The notes below the pieces were generated by a model that made no database searches, had not been told where the DNA came from, and saw nothing but the letters and a program-made list of their open reading frames with translations. Position numbers and translations under genes: made by a program. Source: a virus. Taken from it: a stretch of DNA of 64,000 bases. Of this stretch, positions 2 through 61,077 are shown in pieces. The first letter of the stretch is position 1. Each line of letters begins with the position of its first letter. The DNA lies in IMG/VR virus record IMGVR_UViG_3300042564_000781, positions 56,668 to 120,667 of that record, one strand, 5' to 3'.

Positions 2-3000
2 TTTATAGTAGAAGAAACATACGGACCAGCAGTACAATCAATTACAACAACACCTCTCGACCTTATACAAACTAAAAGAGATATTAGATCTCTAGTCGAT
101 GCAATCACATATGATCTAGCAAGAGGCGGCAACAGTCAGACTGTTGCATTTACTCTTTCATTTTTTGACGAACAGTACAGCTATAAATTTATTACGCCCA
201 GAGTTTCCTCTTCAATTACTGTTCTTATAACAGCCTTTAATCGAGTGTTTACACTAATCTCTGATATTTTAAATAATATAATAGTTGATCCAACGTTTCA
301 AACAATTTATCCGCAGATAACAGGCACTGTTGCCGGACTATCCCAAGCCCTAACGTCAGTACAATCATTTCAAAACATAGTTATTACTGCTCTAATTAAT
401 GAAAATATCAACAGTATACCTGCTCGAAATCAAGGTCTTACTGCAACTTTAATGGTTAAGACCGGAGCCTACCATGAAGAATTACCAATTGTAATTCCCG
501 CTAATACAGCACTTAATGGAGATGAACTCAGGGGTGTAATAGTTTACCCGAAGACAATTATTAATACTATTGCAACTAGATCATTTTCCGCAACAAATTT
601 ATTTAGAGTAAATACAACAGAAGGAATGATTAACAATACCGCAGTTCAGTTTGTATCAGTTAATCCAGTGTCCGGATTTAATACTGTATTCGGCGGAGTT
701 GTTGCCGGAACAACTTATTATGTAATTGGCAGCTCCATCACAAGCACTCAATTTTCAGTAAGTGCAATTCCAGGCGGCCCTCCAGTTACGCTATCAAATG
801 CTACTAGTCAAATGAAAGTATTTGGCGGCGATGCATTAAAGGACATGTTCCGTGTTCAAAATGGTTCAGGTATTAGAAACATGACATTATCTGGGCTGCT
901 AGGCACACTTACAGCACCAAATTCATTTACTACACGTCGTCCGACTGGTGGAAGTTTTGTAAGTTTAGATCCCGGAACCGGCATAGCCGATACCACAGCT
1001 CATATTTACAGAAGAAGTCCATATATTCAAAATGTAACGACTTTTGGTACAGGATGTGTTGGTTTAAAAATCGACGGCAGCTTGCACGCCCTTGGCAACA
1101 AGTCTATAGTGTGTAACGACTTTACACAAATTGTAAGTGACGGAGTTGGTATATACTGCACTGGACCCGGCGCACTTTGCGAAGCAGTGTCAGTATTTTC
1201 ATATTATGCATATGCTGGATACTTATCCGAAGCAGGCGGCCGTATACGTGCTACTAACGGCAACAGCTCATATGGTAACTTTGGAGTTATTGCTGAAGGA
1301 TTTGATACTACTGAAATCCCATCAGTTGGCACGGTATTTAATAGATACTACGAAGCCAGTGCAACTCCTATTAGTGCATTGGGCGCAACTGCTAACATTT
1401 TGAAGCTTCAATACAGTCATGCTGGGCAGGAATATATAACATCAACAACTAACTTGCTACAATATAGTAATTCATTTACTAACTGGACAAGTGACGGTAA
1501 TATTACCCTAATCCAGTCAATACTATCCCCGTTTGCTAATCAATCAGATGCATGGATTGCAACCGGTAATACCTCTGGAACTAACAGTAGCTATTTTTCA
1601 AAATCAATTACTATTGCACCATCGGGAGAAATATATACTAACATTGCTGGTATTAATATTACCGGCGGTGGCTTAGGAGCAACATTTGATATTATAGTAA
1701 CTAGTACGCAATATACAGTGACTATTAACAATGGAGGTACTGGATATGTTGCAACAAATCAGATTCGTATACTTGGCTCTCAACTAGGCGGAATTTCCGG
1801 AGTTAATGATCTAATTATTACAGTTACTGAACTATCAGGAACTACTATTACGACAATTACCTCAATTGGAGTAGTACAGATTGGTAGTGTACAACCATAT
1901 ACTGCAAGCATTTTCTGCAAACAGGGCACATCAACTACGTTTGATCTTGTAGCTACCTTTAGTGGTTATTCTGCAGCATCGAGTAGTATCAGTTACAACT
2001 TTAACACAAATACTATAACTCCGGGTAGTGCAACAGGCGGCATGACTCCTGTTGTATTTTCTGCAACGCCTATATCAACTAATCCTGGATGGGTTAGATT
2101 ATCATTTAGATTCTATGATGTATCCGGATTAAACAATACTCTTAAATTGACAATCTACCCAAGATCGCAACTAGGTAATAGCAGCTATACACTAATATAC
2201 GGAGCACAGTTAGAATTAGGCACCCGCACCGGGTTTTATCAAGAAACAACTACTGGAAGATATACAGCGTATGCAAATTATGACGTTGTAGGAGCAGGAT
2301 CCGGAGTTGATTTAGTTGCAGACGAAATTAGAGACCGTGGCATATATCAAACTCGTATATTAGAAGTTAACGGAGTTACCGGCGGAGTTGGACATAGACT
2401 ATCTACTAATAATGCACAAGCAGGCACTGACTCAACAATTACTATTGCTGGTTCAGATATTGCCGGCCCTAAGGACTATCTTGGAATGCGAGTATTTGTT
2501 AATAGCGGCTTAGGAGCAGGCCAATATGGAGCAATTTCAGCGTTTGACGCAGAATTAAAAATTGCATCAGTATTAAAAGAATCTTTTACTCAATTAGAAA
2601 TAACAACAAGTTCAAGTATTGGTAATATTTTTACGTTAGCACCAAGTGCTGATGTGTATTCATTATATAATAATCAACCAGTACAATTTGTTCCTACTAC
2701 CTACGACACTATTGTAACATTGGTAGGACAAAGTTCAGTAGAGGCAACTAGTACAATAGGAGGTCAAACTAATACTATGTATGTGACCAGCACAGCGCAG
2801 CTGACTGTTAACATGCCGGTAACATTTTCAGGAATAACCTATGGTGGCGTAACTTCAAATTTCACATATTATATAATTGCAATCCTTAACGAAAATGAAA
2901 TTCAATTAGGCTTAACAGTAGGCGGCATAGCTATCTTCTTAAATAATGATGACGGCAGCATGTCATTAAACTATCCGTCAAATACTGGGTATTTAGGTGC

Positions 3001-6000
3001 GCCGACTACTAATATGGATATAAATTTGCCAATATATTTTACAGGCGCAGTATTGTCAGAGATCGAAGCTAGTACTGATTATTTCATTAATGATGTCATT
3101 GACATTAATAATTTTACTATATCAGACACGTTAGTAACTCCTACTGCTACAAGCACCACAGCTATTAGTAATACCGTTACTGTAGATACAAGTGATACGT
3201 TAGTTCCGTTAAATCCTATTAAATTTGCAGGAACTGCATTCGGCTCAATCTTACCAAGCACTAAGTATTATATAAACCACATTGTTGACTCTACAAACAT
3301 TACTATTTCTCTCGGTACATTAACTACTACTGCAACTGCTACTCAAAATGAAGGAGAGTTAATAACAGTTGGAGATACTACTGGATTTGCTATTGGAAAT
3401 GCAATTAAATTTACAGGAACTACGTTCGGCGGTATTGTTAACGATCGAATATATTATATTTCGTACATTAATAACGCTACATCACTAATCGTTAGTTCAT
3501 CGTCGTCGGCATTATCTATTACTGCAACTAATACATCAACTAGCATCAACATTAGTGGAACCGTCTACAATAATGTTTTAACATTGATATCATCGAGTAA
3601 TTTAACACCAATGTATCCTGTAACATTTTCAGGGACTACATTTGGAAGTATCACAGCAGGTACTACGTATTTTATAAGTAGGATTTATGACTCAACTCGT
3701 ATATCAATTACTAATTCGATTATTTCAGTAACTGCAATTGAAACATCAGCAACCTCTAACTTAATACATGTCGAGTCTACTGCCGGATTTGTTGCAGGCA
3801 ACCCAATAATATTTGGAGGAGTATCATTTGGTGGTATAGTTTCAGGGCAATTATACTATATTTCTGCAGTTAACTCACCCACAGACTTTACAATTAGTAC
3901 AACGCCAACTGGATCAGCAGTGGTATTAACGGCCGGCACCGGAAGTATTACAGCAAGAACTCCTGCAGTAAATACTACAGTAACTACAGCAACTGGTTCG
4001 ATGATTGGAACTACTAGGGCTAGTGCTAGTCCAGTATTATTAACTTCTGCAATTGGGCTGTGTATTGTTAGGACAACCAGCTCAACAATCACTTTATCAA
4101 CTGCTACGGGCCTATTAACCGGTACATCAACTACCGTAAAGAAACAATTCACTAGTGATGCAGGCTCTATGGTAGGTACTTTTAGTGTACCTATACTTGG
4201 TGGTATTACTCAAGGAATCACCTACTACGTCCGTACTATTACACCGGGTGTATCAAATACATTTACAATAACAGCTACAAGTGGCGGCGGGACTAATGTA
4301 ACACTAACAGATACAGTAGGTTCTATGAAGATAGGGCAGATAGGCTGGGATCATATAAATCCAGGAACACCATTAGTAGCATCGTTTGACTCCACATCTG
4401 TGTACAGTATTGAGCCACGAATTATATATTCTAAACCCAATTTTACATCAACTAGCTCATTAGCTACTACACAAGCAGTTGGGGTTTCTTATGTTGATAT
4501 AGGATACGGCGGCGGTAAATTTACCGGACTTGCTAATGCTGATTCGACATTAACAGTTAGTGAAGATGGAGTACTATGGACACCACAATCATTACCATCT
4601 TCTGCAACATGGTCTAGTATTGCTTACGGAAGCAGTTATTGGGTGATTATATCATCCGGGGGTAGTGGTATTTCTGGCTCTAAAGTATTATACTCAAATA
4701 GCAATTTAGCAACATGGAAAACATCCTACTTGCCAAGTATTGGAAATTGGAGTAAAGTAGCGTACGGAAACGGAAAATTTGTTGCTATCACAAGCAATTC
4801 TGCAAGTTCGTCGTACTCATTAAATTTTGGCGCTACTTGGGTAGCAGGCACAGGATTACCTAATACTACATGGTCAGGACTAACATATGGCGCTGGCACA
4901 TTTGTTGCAGTAGCAACAGGCGGAACTCAGGCTGCAAGAAGTACTGATGGAATTACATGGGCATCTAGCACATTACCTAATTCAACTGCATGGTCGGGCG
5001 TTGCGTATGGAAACGGAAGATTCGTTGCAGTGTCATCAACTTTATCTAAAGCAGCATATAGCCTAGATGGGATTACATGGAGTCAATCATTATACAGTGT
5101 GCTCGGAACTAATATTGCCTATGGAAACGGAGTATTTATTTTAGCAGGAGATGACCCATTTTGTTATACAAGCGAAGATGGAATTGTATGGACCAAAACA
5201 GCAGTCGTTCCGGGTGTTGGACGAATGGTGTATGGATTATATGGTGTAAACGGAAGATTTGCATCAGTTAGTGGCCAGGATACGGCAATGGTAATTACTG
5301 CAGGCAGTCAGACTAAAGCAAGAGCCAGTGTTGCTGGTGGAAAAATTATAGAGATTAACGAATGGGATCCAGGTTCAAATTATATAAATTCCCCAACAGT
5401 AACCATAGTCGATGCTAATGCTACAGTTTTAACAGCAACGTCGCCACTACTTGGCTCTGGTGTATTAGGAAATCCTACATTTATTAATCGAGGCACAGGA
5501 TATAATACTAATACTACTACTATTACAATTACAGGAGATGGGTATGCTGAACGTTTTCAAACTGGTCTAGGAATCATTATTAGCAATTTGATAGTATTGC
5601 CAGTAGCCGGTGATAATCTTGCAATCGCTGGGAACGACACAATCTATAAAGTAACGTCTGCAACACTATTAGATGGATCAATTACTCCAAACATTATTGC
5701 TGAAGTATTTGTGTCACCTGAAATAACAGTTGGCTTATCACCTAATCAGGGAGTGCCTGTATCAATCAGGACAAAATACAGTCAAGTACGATTAACTAAT
5801 CATGACTACTTGAACATTGGATACGGAAACTTTGAAGAATCAAATTATCCATTGCTACCAGCAAGCACAGTATTGTCGCAAGAGAATGAGGCAGTTGATG
5901 CTAACTATGGCCGTGTGTTTTATTCTTCAACAGACCAAGACGGTAACTTCCGAGTTGGTAAACTATTTGCGGTTGAGCAGGCTACTGGTATTATTACGCT

Positions 6001-51735: not shown

Positions 51736-52911
51736 ATGATAACAGTAGACACATTGCTCATAGAGCTGTCCCGTCAAGGCATTGAAACCTTAAGTTCTCA
51801 GATTGCCAACAGAGATAAAAAAGTTTTAATCAGTCTTGCTAGGCAAATTACATCGGGTCAATTTTTGACTGAAAATCAGTCAAAATTACTGATAAAAATT
51901 CTCAAAGAAAACGATCAACATATTTTTGATCCAACGTCTACCACTCGCACTGTTGTTGATAATCCCACATGGACACACCCCTTTAGAGTGATTGAACAGG
52001 TTAGAAAAATTTTCTTATCCAAAGACCACGATGGCCGAATCATAGTGGAATTTACCCATAATAAACGTCTACGACAGCAAATCACTGACCTCAATAAAAT
52101 CATCGAAGGTCAGATGCTGTCGATTAATAACAGGCAGTATAGTGTACCACTAACTGAAAAAAATCTCTACCAGATAGTCGCAGTGTTCAAATCACATGGG
52201 TTCGAAGTAGATCCAATTATTATGAAATTTTACCAAGAAATTTCAGAAATTCGCTCAAGAAAGTCAACCCAGTTTGATGTGTTTAATTTAACTAATGAAA
52301 AATTAATTACCGCGGTGCATAATGAAATTGGTCAGATATCAGACGACAATTTGATTATGTTAAACGATCGAAGCTTGAAATTTCAATTCACAATTTTTCC
52401 AAAAAATCCAGAAATTTCACTGAAAAATTCACTGGCTAACAGGCCGTCACCTCGAGTATGGATTGATAGTAACACTACCCCACTTGATGAGTTAGTTACG
52501 GCACTATACAAATTAAATCGATTACCTGTACTATTTGTGTTCAACGGTCATGACTCTAAAGAGTGTTTACAAAACCTCAAAAAATTGGAAAAATCACTGA
52601 AAAATAGTGACCTTGATAAGATCGGGATTTATTTTAGATTTGATAGTGGCAGTGATAATAACAAAGAATTTAATTCTTTAATTTCACAATTAGATTACAA
52701 CTCTAAATTAAATCAACAGACACAGGTAGCAGGTATTGCAAATAATAAATTACCAAAATTCATGCTAAAAAATGGTTGGTATCCATCAAGTGTAGTATCA
52801 TTCTCAAATAATTTTAAAAGCAATAAAACCAGTGTCTATTGCAATTCAGTTGATTTGATAGTATACTACAATGATAAACGTCCCTTAGGAGGGGTAGATG
52901 CCATCGTGTAA
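51736..52911 (+). CDS. Hypothetical protein
   Basis: 391-aa ORF overlapping the start of uvsW. Confidence 0.7.
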   Translation: MITVDTLLIELSRQGIETLSSQIANRDKKVLISLARQITSGQFLTENQSKLLIKILKENDQHIFDPTSTTRTVVDNPTWTHPFRVIEQVRKIFLSKDHDGRIIVEFTHNKRLRQQITDLNKIIEGQMLSINNRQYSVPLTEKNLYQIVAVFKSHGFEVDPIIMKFYQEISEIRSRKSTQFDVFNLTNEKLITAVHNEIGQISDDNLIMLNDRSLKFQFTIFPKNPEISLKNSLANRPSPRVWIDSNTTPLDELVTALYKLNRLPVLFVFNGHDSKECLQNLKKLEKSLKNSDLDKIGIYFRFDSGSDNNKEFNSLISQLDYNSKLNQQTQVAGIANNKLPKFMLKNGWYPSSVVSFSNNFKSNKTSVYCNSVDLIVYYNDKRPLGGVDAIV

Positions 52912-55913: not shown

Positions 55914-56609
55914 ATGTTAGAATTAAGTGTGAATAAACCTTACGCCTGTCAGTTTTGCAAATCAAAATTTATGCAAGAAAGAACTCTTGCAGTACACATG
56001 TGCGAGCAGAAAAGACGTTACTTGGCCAAGGATGAAAAACATGTTTTTATAGGATATCAAACCTATAATAAATTTTATAGAATTACGCAACAACTAGGTG
56101 TTGACAAAACCTATGACGACTTTGCACGTAGCCCATATTATAATGCTATGGTAAAGTTTGGAAGTTTTGTTAATAACACAAAGCCCCTATACCCTGACAA
56201 ATTTATCGACTATGTAGTACGCAGTGGTGTTAAATTAGATCACTGGTGTAGAGATGAATTATATGAGAAATATGTTATTAACTTAATTCATACTGAATCT
56301 GTCGAGACCGCATTAGAGAGAAGTGTTGCACACATGCAATCCTGGGCCACTGATAATAATGCCCTGTGGAATCATTACTTTAAGTATGTTAGTACTAATC
56401 GAGCTGTATTTGATGTCAAGGATGGTAAAGTGAGCCCGTGGCTAATTCTTAACTGTGCTAGTGGCAAAGCTATGCTGGGCAATTTCCGTGATGATCAGTT
56501 GAGTGCCATTGGCAATGTTATTGATCCGCAGGTATGGGTTAAGAAGTTTAAAACTCAAAAGTTTGACATGGAACTTGTGAGAACTATTGTTAAAGAATCG
56601 AGCCTATAA
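55914..56609 (+). CDS. Hypothetical protein with N-terminal C2H2/C2HC-like zinc finger
   Basis: PYACQFCKSKF.....LAVHMC. Confidence 0.7.
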   Translation: MLELSVNKPYACQFCKSKFMQERTLAVHMCEQKRRYLAKDEKHVFIGYQTYNKFYRITQQLGVDKTYDDFARSPYYNAMVKFGSFVNNTKPLYPDKFIDYVVRSGVKLDHWCRDELYEKYVINLIHTESVETALERSVAHMQSWATDNNALWNHYFKYVSTNRAVFDVKDGKVSPWLILNCASGKAMLGNFRDDQLSAIGNVIDPQVWVKKFKTQKFDMELVRTIVKESSL

Positions 56610-57190
56610 TGCCAGATATTGATATTGACTTTGCTGACAGAGATCACGCCCTTAAATTTATCAAACATATACCTGCGGCTATTAAGGATACAACTGGTAC
56701 TTTTAAAAAGCACAATACTGGCGTATATTGTACACCTATCCCGTACAATCCTGTAAATAACTTATCCAACGTAGACTACAAAGAAGCAGAAGAAAGAGGC
56801 TATTTTAAACTAGACTTTCTAAATGTTAGTATCTATAAAGATGTACGGGATGAAGAGCATCTCAAAACTTTAATGGAGACTGAACCACTATGGGACCTTT
56901 TAGCGCAGGACGATTTCAGCAGTTTACTATTTCACGTCAACGGACACGGAAGCATTTTGAGACAGATGAAGCCGACGAGTATACTCCAACTAGCGGCCGT
57001 TTTGGCTATGATAAGACCCGCAAAGAGGCATTTGATTGGAGAGACCTGGACGACGGTGATGGAGACGATTTGGACAAAGCCCGAGGATGGTGAGTACTAC
57101 TTTAAGAAAGCTCATGCGGTAGCATACGCAATGGCAGTGGTAGTACAGATGAATTTAATCTGTGAAAGTATCAGTTACGGATATACATGA
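56609..57190 (+). CDS. Miniature DNA polymerase III alpha (DnaE)-like catalytic module
   Basis: PDIDIDF, KHNTGVY, KLDFLN, AMIRPA and YFKKAHAVAY occur in DnaE order within 193 aa. Confidence 0.8.
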   Translation: MPDIDIDFADRDHALKFIKHIPAAIKDTTGTFKKHNTGVYCTPIPYNPVNNLSNVDYKEAEERGYFKLDFLNVSIYKDVRDEEHLKTLMETEPLWDLLAQDDFSSLLFHVNGHGSILRQMKPTSILQLAAVLAMIRPAKRHLIGETWTTVMETIWTKPEDGEYYFKKAHAVAYAMAVVVQMNLICESISYGYT

Positions 57191-57804
57191 CTATAGAATA
57201 TTTTGAAACTCCAGTGCCCCATATAATTGTTAGAAACATATTTAATACTAATGATTTAGAAAATGTTTGGAAAGAATTAGCATTCTTAACACATCCAGAC
57301 AAACTGTTATCACCAACAATTACACAATCGGCAATATCACCTAACGGCAATACGGTTAAAAACAACCACGGAGTTTTCTTACATGATATATACCAAACTC
57401 CTAATATTTCAGATATCTATCGATCAATGACTAATGTGTTTACTAGACAATTCTGTGAAGAAGTAGCTTCTAAACATATGATATTTAAATGGTTTACTGA
57501 GCTTACTGATGAATCTTTTTTGTTAAGTTATTATGATGATAATGATAATTACCTTCCACATAAAGATGTGTCTATATATACAGTACTAGTTAACCTATAT
57601 AAAGACCCTAAAGCATTTGTCGGTGGAGATTTGTTGTTGGGTGAAGATGGCTATACAATTCCGTTAGAAAATAATAGGATGATTATTTTTCCAAGTTGGG
57701 CAGTACATGGAGTTACCCCTGTTAAATTTTTAAATACAACAGAAAAATTCTCAGGATGGGGAAGATATACTATTAGTAATTTTCGAATGTACTTACGACA
57801 ATAA
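57187..57804 (+). CDS. 2OG-Fe(II) oxygenase (prolyl-hydroxylase-like)
   Basis: SYY...D.Y.PHxD, F.GGDL, NR.IIFPS...H.V, GRY. Confidence 0.82.
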   Translation: MTIEYFETPVPHIIVRNIFNTNDLENVWKELAFLTHPDKLLSPTITQSAISPNGNTVKNNHGVFLHDIYQTPNISDIYRSMTNVFTRQFCEEVASKHMIFKWFTELTDESFLLSYYDDNDNYLPHKDVSIYTVLVNLYKDPKAFVGGDLLLGEDGYTIPLENNRMIIFPSWAVHGVTPVKFLNTTEKFSGWGRYTISNFRMYLRQ

Positions 57805-57817
57805 GGTACAGATTTAG

Positions 57818-58198
57818 TTAATTCTTAGGTATAGGTCGAACCAATTGTACACTTTTACGTTTGACTCTTTTTAACGTTAAGTTCATTAAATTAACAACTG
57901 GTCCTAATAGTATTCGAACATCCTTACTATTAAATGTCTTTATTGCATACTTAAACGGCGAAATTTCTGTGCGCAGAAAGATATTGATAGGTATCTGTCT
58001 ATTTGATTCCCACCACCAAGTCTCTCCAATATCTAAAAATATCGTCTTTTCTTCGGGTGTTTTAATAATAGATAAGTCGTAGAAGCTAGTTACGAACTGA
58101 TCTTGATTTATAATAATACCTACGAATTCGGCCTCGCCGTAGTGTAATACGCTTATAAACGGTAAGTGTTCTTGTATGTTATCTCTTAATTTAACCAT
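57818..58198 (-). CDS. Hypothetical protein
   Basis: 126 aa with WWWESNR.IPI. A minus-strand TATAAATA lies at 58245-58252. Confidence 0.7.
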   Translation of the reverse strand: MVKLRDNIQEHLPFISVLHYGEAEFVGIIINQDQFVTSFYDLSIIKTPEEKTIFLDIGETWWWESNRQIPINIFLRTEISPFKYAIKTFNSKDVRILLGPVVNLMNLTLKRVKRKSVQLVRPIPKN

Positions 58199-60029: not shown

Positions 60030-60136
60030 AATTTATTAATTGGCTACTAACGCCCTACAGACGCTGGCAGGAACGCAAAGCATTTAATAAGCGTCTTGAA
60101 GAACTGCGTAAACGCGATCCATTTATTTACAAATGA
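60026..60136 (+). CDS. 36-aa micropeptide MKFINWLLTPYRRWQERKAFNKRLEELRKRDPFIYK (not in the ORF track)
   Basis: ATGA overlaps with both the primase stop and the carbamoyltransferase start, filling the gap exactly. Confidence 0.75.
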   Translation: MKFINWLLTPYRRWQERKAFNKRLEELRKRDPFIYK

Positions 60137-61077
60137 TACAGTGGGGAATAAACGCTCTCAATCACGGCAGTAGTCTAGCGGTGTTTAAGGATAGCGAACT
60201 ACTATCATGGGTTACGTGTAAAGATAACGAAATAGACACATTACTTATTACTGATGCACTACATCGAGGTGCTCCGGATCGTATTTTTTGGTATGAACGT
60301 CCTTGGCTTAAAAAAGCAAGACAAGTATATGCTGGGCAATATGCGACAGCATTAGACATGTCGGTGTTACCTAAACGATATTTGAATAAAATAAGAGTTC
60401 ACTATGCCCCAGTTACTTACACGCCGCACCATGCAAGTCATGCTGCCGCTGGGTACTACTCTAGTCCGTTTAATCACTGTGCCATTGTTGTACTAGATGC
60501 AATAGGTGAATTTGAATCGGCTACCATATGGGAAGCCAAGTACGGTGAAATGAAGAAAGTATGGAGCAGAAGTTATCCACATAGTTTAGGCTTGTTCTAT
60601 TCAGCATTTACAAAATTAATTGGACTTACTCCAATTAAAGATGAATACCTATTACAGAAGATGGCAGCACAGGGCGACAAACAACGGTATTTTAAAGAAG
60701 TTAATAACTATGTCAGCAACACAGTTAATCTAAAATACAACCTACATCGAGGTGTATTAAACTGGCCTTACCCGATTGAAACACTGCAAGATCAATGTGA
60801 CATTGCGGCCGCAGTACAAGATGCATTTGAAGGTCAAATTGGTATGGTTATGCTAGAAGCTAGAAAATTAATCAACACCGATTGCCTAGTTTATATGGGC
60901 GGCTGTGCTATGAATTCGGATGCTAACAAACGGTTTGTAGAACCCGCATTTAAGTATCGCTGGTCATTGCCAAATCCGGGTGATCCGAGTAGTAGCATAG
61001 GGGCAGTTGCTTATCACAATAAACAACGGATATACCGCAACTGGTCACCAGTCAAACACATTGCAATTAACGTATAA
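60133..61077 (+). CDS. Carbamoyltransferase N-terminal (Kae1-like) domain only
   Basis: GINA.NH.SS, YERP..K..RQ, HH.SHAAAGY, LDAIGE, YPHSLGLFYS, GGCAMN, GD.SSSIG. The C-terminal GPRALG domain is absent. Confidence 0.85.
   Translation: MIQWGINALNHGSSLAVFKDSELLSWVTCKDNEIDTLLITDALHRGAPDRIFWYERPWLKKARQVYAGQYATALDMSVLPKRYLNKIRVHYAPVTYTPHHASHAAAGYYSSPFNHCAIVVLDAIGEFESATIWEAKYGEMKKVWSRSYPHSLGLFYSAFTKLIGLTPIKDEYLLQKMAAQGDKQRYFKEVNNYVSNTVNLKYNLHRGVLNWPYPIETLQDQCDIAAAVQDAFEGQIGMVMLEARKLINTDCLVYMGGCAMNSDANKRFVEPAFKYRWSLPNPGDPSSSIGAVAYHNKQRIYRNWSPVKHIAINV

Follow-up and report, generated by a model that had tools for sequence, protein, structure and literature searches.

The locus

The stretch of DNA analysed here (hereafter the window) comprises the closing 64 kb of a virus contig of 120,667 bp in the IMG/VR database (record IMGVR_UViG_3300042564_000781, positions 56,668 to 120,667), for which CheckV gives a completeness of about 33%. 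An ATG-started open reading frame (ORF) of 193 codons occupies positions 56609..57190 of the plus strand, and it very probably encodes the C-terminal unit (C-unit) of the 'minimal Pol III alpha' for which T4-like jumbo phages (group 2.2) have two genes; that its product is a subunit of a split enzyme is almost certain. The other half, an N-terminal unit (N-unit) with the GRGS motif, is the product of a distant gene in related phages. The C-unit gene overlaps both of its neighbours, its start codon with the stop of the upstream ORF (TAATG) and its own stop with the start of the one downstream (ATGA). Around it lie genes for the tail sheath and tube, the large terminase, a gp32-type single-stranded DNA-binding protein, UvsX, UvsY, a UvsW-type helicase, a primase and a DnaB-type helicase. 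Judging from their sequences these surroundings are a T4-like replication/recombination module, in which the C-unit gene has UvsX, UvsY and UvsW on one side and the primase and DnaB genes on the other. The same stretch was detected in 24 metagenome runs, all of lake-water DNA and some possibly the source of this DNA; no RNA runs are listed among the 24. The C-unit and its motifs are as follows.

56609..57190, plus strand: probable C-terminal (metal-/template-binding) unit of a split minimal Pol III alpha, 193 amino acids (aa) (ORF, phrog_11778 match, AlphaFold2 model, VIA-align)
56612..56632, plus strand: PDIDIDF, residues 2-8, a beta-strand with the two metal-binding aspartates D3 and D5 plus D7 (conservation, identity to Mycobacterium tuberculosis DnaE1, strand 4-8 of the model)
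56711..56725, plus strand: HNTGV, residues 35-39 (H35, G38), palm beta-hairpin (conservation, strand 32-40 of the model)
56807..56821, plus strand: KLDFL, residues 67-71, with the third catalytic aspartate D69 and K67 (conservation, alignment to Escherichia coli alpha in 2hnh)
57005..57019, plus strand: AMIRP finger motif, residues 133-137 (R136, P137), followed by K139 (conservation, alignment to E. coli alpha ALFRPG, about 636-641)
57095..57127, plus strand: YYFKKAHAVAY finger motif, residues 163-173 (K166, H169) (aligned to YGFNKSHSAAYAL within E. coli alpha 739-768)

The ORF starts with MPDIDIDF, and PDIDIDF, HNTGV, KLDFL, AMIRP and YYFKKAHAVAY follow one another in DnaE order, just as a first-pass annotation made from the sequence alone had read them. 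The same annotation had noted what the protein lacks, and family scans of the ORF bear this out, as they found no PHP domain, GRGS motif, clamp-binding region or OB region.

Relationship to Pol III alpha

The C-unit belongs to a phage protein family of matching length: residues 3-187 align to positions 8-194 of the 197 in phrog_11778, which is annotated as 'DNA polymerase' (E 2.5e-66). Pfam returns a single, sub-threshold match to the Pol III finger domain (E 0.088). In a phmmer search against the PDB the protein is collinear with M. tuberculosis DnaE1, residues 1-13 corresponding to 413-425, 53-139 to 565-664 and 160-176 to 772-788, and the opening MPDIDIDF is letter-identical to chain positions 413-420. 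A profile built from 84 diverse family members recovers Pol III alpha chains only (nine of nine distinct sequences, E 1.2e-5 to 9e-5). In its alignment K67 and D69 fall on the KFDF of E. coli alpha, which makes them K553 and D555 when counted along the profile alignment from chain residue 539, and FKKxHA falls on FNKSHS within residues 739-768, while the roughly 100 finger residues at 642-738 are shrunk to about ten. At the level of sequence, the motif and profile agreement with Pol III alpha is far beyond chance. The catalytic residues of E. coli alpha are numbered here as D401, D403 and D555; this numbering and the domain names reportedly go back to the 2006 structure paper of Lamers et al., which Iyer et al. 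(2021) cite.

Structure prediction leads to the same family. The AlphaFold2 model of the C-unit is confident throughout (mean predicted local distance difference test score, pLDDT, 95.6; predicted template modelling score, pTM, 0.88), and the top 16 PDB matches returned by Foldseek are all Pol III alpha. VIA-align superimposes 186-190 of the 193 residues on the five best entries (Z 9.3-9.6, root-mean-square deviation, rmsd, 3.6-3.9 A), covering residues 461-841 of Thermus aquaticus (Taq) alpha, 400-784 of E. coli alpha, 419-811 of M. tuberculosis DnaE1 and 971-1296 of PolC; its top 14 entries are all C-family polymerases and the next match falls to Z 3.0. As modelled, the 193 residues stand for about 385 of E. 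coli alpha (400-784), about half that length, and consist of the palm strand(s) and pared-down fingers, the thumb and about half of the finger region being gone.

The separate N-terminal unit

The first-pass annotation had proposed that the ORF is one half of a split minimal polymerase whose GRGS half is encoded elsewhere, and this half does exist as a stand-alone gene in the relatives of the window phage. Phage CBB encodes the 172-aa gp328 (CBB_328), 34 kb away from its C-unit gene, which ends ...WGLGRGSSVSSYCLYLIGL...EFLKW* and contains a GLGRGSS motif; the CBB genome paper mentions it as a 'truncated' DnaE of 172 aa. A tblastn search with the N-unit finds 106 phage records and one with the C-unit finds 96, all of the latter below 60% identity and every listed one a large phage: identity to the window protein is 54% in Phosso, 53% in Atu_ph07, 50% in PA5oct-like phages and about 40% in the Rak2/121Q/CBB group. 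The two sets overlap, 24 phages in a sample of 40 C-unit records recurring in a sample of 60 N-unit records. The window shares its gene order around the C-unit with 121Q and Phosso, and no close nucleotide relative of the window was found in the phage collection.

In IMG/VR, an N-unit of 161-168 aa is present on four of the five long contigs whose C-units are 71-76% identical to that of the window, the single long contig without one being a fragment of 40% completeness. No N-unit was found on five short contigs from the closest relatives, which are 5-21% complete. The N-unit gene always lies far from the C-unit gene. In 121Q, CBB and PA5oct the distance amounts to 31, 34 and 44 kb, and in Atu_ph07 and Phosso to 182 and 224 kb; it is 163 kb (G001) and 180 kb (G003) in the two IMG/VR contigs for which it was worked out. 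The family in related jumbo phages (161-172 aa) matches phrog_11127 and exceeds the PF07733 cut-off, over profile positions 12-95 of 260 only. WGVGRGSSV and an FLR ending are invariant in 12 of 12 N-units. The N-unit supplies the preceding palm helices and the GRGS loop, and ends exactly at the native loop ahead of PDxDxDF. The GS nucleotide-binding loop and the three metal-binding carboxylates belong to different gene products, the N-unit and the C-unit respectively.

A scan of cellular genomes for N-units recovered 16 loci, all of them (16/16) stand-alone N-unit-sized genes on contigs of metagenome-assembled genomes (MAGs) from many phyla, one of them 335 kb long; these are most likely jumbo-phage contigs that were binned into the MAGs.

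Natural fusions locate the split

Three protein clusters of 375-376 aa, P0219 (375 aa), P0272 and P0273, contain both units in one chain, the latter two being 78-81% identical to P0219. Residues 79-180 of P0219 align to the stand-alone N-unit through its last residue (E 1e-19) and residues 189-360 align to the window C-unit from its first (E 4e-33); in terms of phage families P0219 is phrog_11127 (8-180) and phrog_11778 (190-374) placed end to end. The PF07733 match runs continuously over the junction, and residues 74-205 form an unbroken alignment with residues 283-411 of a conventional DnaE through GRGS ... FL-NPERISLP-DFDIDF. Only about 8-10 residues link the two parts in the fused forms and in conventional DnaE alike. 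It follows from these continuous alignments that the two genes divide the palm at a native surface loop, with no room for intein halves. A quick midpoint-rooted tree groups the three fused forms in one clade (Shimodaira–Hasegawa-like approximate likelihood ratio support, SH-aLRT, 100), several forks inside the split forms; the forks around this clade have support values of 84-94 and the root is not established, a topology consistent with one secondary fusion. No fused form was found on viral contigs, and longer forms of the C-unit were absent from the word index (in itself weak evidence).

The model of P0219 (pTM 0.77) is confident from about residue 80 onwards, the first 78 or so residues being of low confidence. 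Superimposed on Taq alpha 287-830 it reaches Z 22.1 over 291 residues at an rmsd of 3.2 A, with Z 22.0 for M. tuberculosis DnaE1, 21.1 for PolC and 14.9-16.5 for E. coli alpha, compared with no more than 3.2 for terminal transferases, MenT, Cid1, the CCA-adding enzyme and Pol beta. As predicted, then, the fused form is a single Pol III alpha-like palm and finger core.

Conservation, selection and family size

The gene has been maintained across a large family. Among the best 80 of 548 confirmed relatives on viral contigs, which are 67-96% identical to the window gene, it is intact in every one (80/80), 75 copies starting with ATG and five with TTG or GTG. The ATG-started proteins are 186-195 aa long, 45 of them exactly 192 aa. 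With the window gene included, 53 of the 193 alignment columns are invariant, and D3, D5, D7, D69, H35 and G38 are the same in all 81 genes. The Nei-Gojobori (NG86) ratio of nonsynonymous to synonymous substitution rates (dN/dS), taken over the 390 of 3240 pairs with 0.05<dS<1.5, is 0.128 in the median and nowhere exceeds 0.233; it lies between 0.07 and 0.16 in comparisons with the window gene itself. The C-unit gene is therefore under strong purifying selection. At greater distance, in 84 diverse homologues with identities down to 29%, D3, D5, K67, D69 and P137 remain invariant, and D7, H35, G38, R136, K139, K166 and H169 are each kept in at least 90%. The family comprises at least 8000 clusters at 90% identity (106-338-aa range); clustering at 50% leaves 438 representatives with E<=1e-3, and the complete ones among the 150 listed are nearly all 180-216 aa long.

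The equivalents of all three catalytic aspartates, which the first-pass annotation had recognised in the window protein, are hence invariant in 84 of 84 diverse homologues and 81 of 81 close ones. Its reading of the ORF as streamlined rather than decaying holds for the second half: the intact copies and a dN/dS of about 0.13 speak against decay, and the protein may be either streamlined or ancestrally small. Loss of the length or of the aspartate triad, or neutral drift, would have pointed the other way; the family instead keeps a length of 186-195 aa, the triad and the low dN/dS. A decaying remnant of a full-length phage or host dnaE would account for a protein of about one-sixth of DnaE length (193 versus 1160 aa) and for the sub-threshold Pfam finger match, but the pseudogene reading is refuted by the 80 intact copies, the dN/dS and the invariant catalytic residues, to which the confident model and a PHROG of matching length can be added; it may be dismissed for practical purposes.

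Proposed activity and alternative explanations

The N- and C-units would join non-covalently into one Pol-beta-fold active site, with the triphosphate-binding GS loop contributed by the N-unit and the metal ligands by the C-unit, so that neither half would work alone. The resulting heterodimer would be a small nucleotidyltransferase without a clamp-binding region, PHP domain or proofreading domain of its own, most likely a low-processivity template-dependent DNA polymerase that operates beside the family-B replicase. Gap filling, repair and recombination-dependent synthesis are possible jobs, and such a role would fit the place of the gene between UvsX/UvsY/UvsW and primase/DnaB. It is likely that the pair is catalytically active; that its activity is templated DNA synthesis is the answer we lean towards, with distinctly less assurance. 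A more far-reaching combination is offered tentatively, as a whole that we would not yet back: the N- and C-units, about 360 residues together, may constitute the smallest active C-family DNA polymerase, a composite-site heterodimer devoid of clamp-binding region and PHP domain with a dedicated role (repair, recombination-primed or lagging-strand synthesis) beside the family-B replicase, or alternatively carry out non-templated chemistry, and, separately, the C-unit gene may be overprinted in frame +2 by a second gene of some 67 codons.

A number of points weigh against a split polymerase at this locus. Four probes found no N-unit in the 120,667-bp contig of the phage itself, which is only about 33% complete: phrog_405 matched nothing but the C-unit, the translated search with CBB gp328 and the phrog_11127 search were empty, and a six-frame scan for the GRGS motif returned one unrelated GKGS. 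Searches of this fragment for PF07733, Pol B and RNase_T were likewise all empty, which leaves it without a detectable family-B polymerase. The first-pass annotation had suggested looking for a short GxGRGSS ORF and for the main replicative polymerase; neither turned up in the contig, but both are present among relatives, the former in related contigs and phages and the latter as an ORF of about 890-900 aa that matches family-B polymerases in three of four related records (a PHP domain was found in none of the four). Considering the gene spacing in relatives and the incompleteness of the contig, the missing N-unit says little, and a partner for this particular phage is assumed from relatives whose C-units are 71-76% identical. 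The DnaE equivalog models of NCBIfam, with scores of 16-54 bits against cut-offs of at least 434, are not approached, the best score of the C-unit being 16 bits. The mini-enzyme lacks the thumb, the duplex-binding helix-hairpin-helix (HhH) region and the clamp-binding motif; with these and some 100 finger residues gone, templated and processive synthesis is not assured. The assembly of the two units was modelled as the natural single-chain fusion only. In the literature no experimental work on the mini-enzyme was found, and genome papers only annotate its pieces as Pol III alpha; a paper on phage PaBG deals with the gamma and beta subunits and has no bearing here.

The alternative that deserves most attention is that the two units make up a Pol-beta-fold nucleotidyltransferase that is active without being a templated DNA polymerase, and that, for example, adds nucleotides to 3' ends without a template, starts chains or makes a nucleotide product. 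The loss of the thumb and much of the fingers, with 193 residues doing duty for E. coli alpha 400-784, the collapse of about 100 finger residues, the missing clamp-binding, OB and HhH parts, and the full family-B replicase that relatives already possess all fit such an enzyme. However, the DnaE-specific RP and FKKxH finger motifs are retained in at least 90% of members, the fused model reaches Z 21-22 with Pol III alpha/PolC as against at most 3.2 with generic transferases, and the gene resides within a replication/recombination module; we consider this explanation unlikely, if well worth keeping in mind.

Two further explanations are far less probable. The C-unit folds confidently on its own and no N-unit was found in its contig, as might be expected of a stand-alone enzyme that needs no partner. 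Yet the nucleotide-binding GS loop of a Pol-beta fold is missing from it, N-units turn up in the same phage lineages and are fused to it in some proteins, addition of the N-part lifts the structural match from Z 9.6 to 22.1, and the contig is in any case only a third complete; a self-sufficient C-unit is accordingly very hard to credit. A non-catalytic binder that keeps the fold, for instance to interfere with or recruit parts of the host replisome, is scarcely easier to defend. No published activity was found for the mini-enzyme and small phage proteins often act as binders, but the invariance of D3, D5, K67 and D69 at 29% identity and of the GRGS loop in the N-unit is not expected without catalysis. 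Moreover, the beta-, tau- and epsilon-binding regions of cellular Pol III alpha are absent. The split C-family polymerase remains the preferred reading.

Neighbouring genes, a nested frame and other loci

The first-pass annotation had regarded the C-unit gene as coupled to both neighbours. The overlaps are real, but the downstream coupling is specific to this phage. Upstream (55914-56609, plus strand) lies the gene for a 231-aa protein of phrog_11058 with a zinc-finger-like CxxC...HxxC motif at the N-terminal side; 73 of 80 relatives have this gene near that of the C-unit. Downstream (57187-57804, plus strand) follows a 205-aa 2-oxoglutarate (2OG)-Fe(II) oxygenase (PF13640, E 1.5e-7; phrog_61) that is absent from all 80 relatives searched, so that it is a lineage-specific insertion and the coupling is not a family trait. 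The stretch including the oxygenase gene is nearly whole in several of the lake-water runs. The next gene is a convergent ORF of 126 aa (57818-58198, minus strand; phrog_11637), the usual neighbour of the C-unit. It was found in 77 of 80 relatives, where the gap to the C-unit stop has a median of 8 nt and the identity a median of 77%, and also in 121Q and Phosso. Pfam and NCBIfam searches with this ORF gave no match and the ESM Atlas no usable one. Its adjacency proves little about a joint function with the mini-polymerase, since the whole module is syntenic.

In some relatives the upstream side has been remodelled. Two loci (L040 and L074, at about 1100-3014) carry a cassette upstream of the C-unit that resembles sugar-nucleotide genes (epimerase-, cytidylyltransferase- and sugar-kinase-like, named from translations only). 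Where it is present, the cassette parts the C-unit from the phrog_11058 gene, and the TTG or GTG start of the C-unit overlaps the inserted sugar-kinase-like gene (five relatives).

A nested ORF of 67 codons runs in frame +2 within the C-unit gene (window 56890-57093, plus strand). This frame is free of stops over at least 60 codons in 73 of the 81 family genes, as compared with none of 81 for frame +1, and an ATG stands at the mapped start in 77. With synonymous codons shuffled, the count averages 3.4 and never exceeds 9 of 81, by a procedure that does not keep the dinucleotide context. Codon conservation at sites with the same amino acid is 0.417 inside the nested region against 0.540 outside it, which counts against a real nested gene.

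Two other loci of the window may be mentioned. A 391-aa ORF without a family match (51736-52911, plus strand), with UvsY and UvsW on either side, takes the slot that belongs to a DnaQ-like 'Pol III epsilon' exonuclease in 121Q; the ORF was considered as the counterpart of the 121Q gene and rejected, there being no detectable relation. Between the primase and DnaB-type helicase genes lies a homologue of Nol-like carbamoyltransferases (60133-61077, plus strand; phrog_1601, E 2.1e-20).

Comparison with known systems

The C-unit shares with the cellular replicases DnaE and PolC (PDB 2hnh, 3e0d, 5lew and 3f2c) the palm and finger fold, the aspartate triad and the KxD, RP and FxKSH motifs in the same order. 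Unlike these it is about one-sixth of their size, without the PHP, thumb, clamp-binding, OB and tau-binding parts, and its palm is split over two genes; it is not a single chain of about 1000-1200 aa that passes the equivalog models. Minimal nucleotidyltransferases of the Pol-beta fold (MenT, Cid1, CutA, the CCA-adding enzyme and Pol beta) have in common with it a GS loop, a DxD motif and a third carboxylate, a combination found here only as a composite, with GRGS in the N-unit and the triad in the C-unit. These enzymes are devoid of the DnaE finger motifs, and the structural match to them is marginal (Z 2.9-3.2 for Pol beta, Cid1 and MenT).

A dnaE-type polymerase distributed over two distant genes is also known from cyanobacteria, where the two products are joined by a split intein through protein trans-splicing. 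In contrast, intein halves are not present in the phage proteins: the N-unit ends in FLR and the C-unit starts with MPDIDIDF, both extein-like. As there are no intein halves and only about 8-10 bridging residues, any assembly of N- and C-units must be non-covalent. The split site of the cyanobacterial gene is also a different one.

The closest precedent is the phage system itself. Iyer et al. (2021, Viruses 13:63; PMC7824862) report for group 2.2 jumbo phages a 'minimal, split Pol III alpha' that stands alongside a family-B polymerase, suggest for it the synthesis of one strand or repair, and argue that the minimal enzyme shows what an early bacterial replicase might resemble. Its C-unit (phrog_11778) corresponds to the same Mg2+-/template-binding subdomain, and the window gene likewise lies in a T4-like module; the N-unit in a distant gene and the family-B polymerase without a PHP domain are matched by relatives of the window phage. 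The same phage lineages carry the system, namely Rak2/121Q-like phages, PA5oct and Atu_ph07. No essential difference was seen in the case described here, except that the copy comes from an uncultured lake-water phage with a 2OG-Fe(II) oxygenase inserted after the C-unit. The finding of a split polymerase is correct and already known; what is added are figures on selection and on how large the family is, the exact split point and the natural fusions with their model, the fusions not being mentioned in the consulted passages of Iyer et al. (2021). If the interpretation is true, a DnaE-type core of about 360 residues over two genes would offer a minimal model for C-family polymerase catalysis, in a family that is very large in environmental phages. 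For the window the gain is a correct annotation: the ORF is neither a new kind of polymerase nor a pseudogene, but very probably the C-unit of a published split enzyme.

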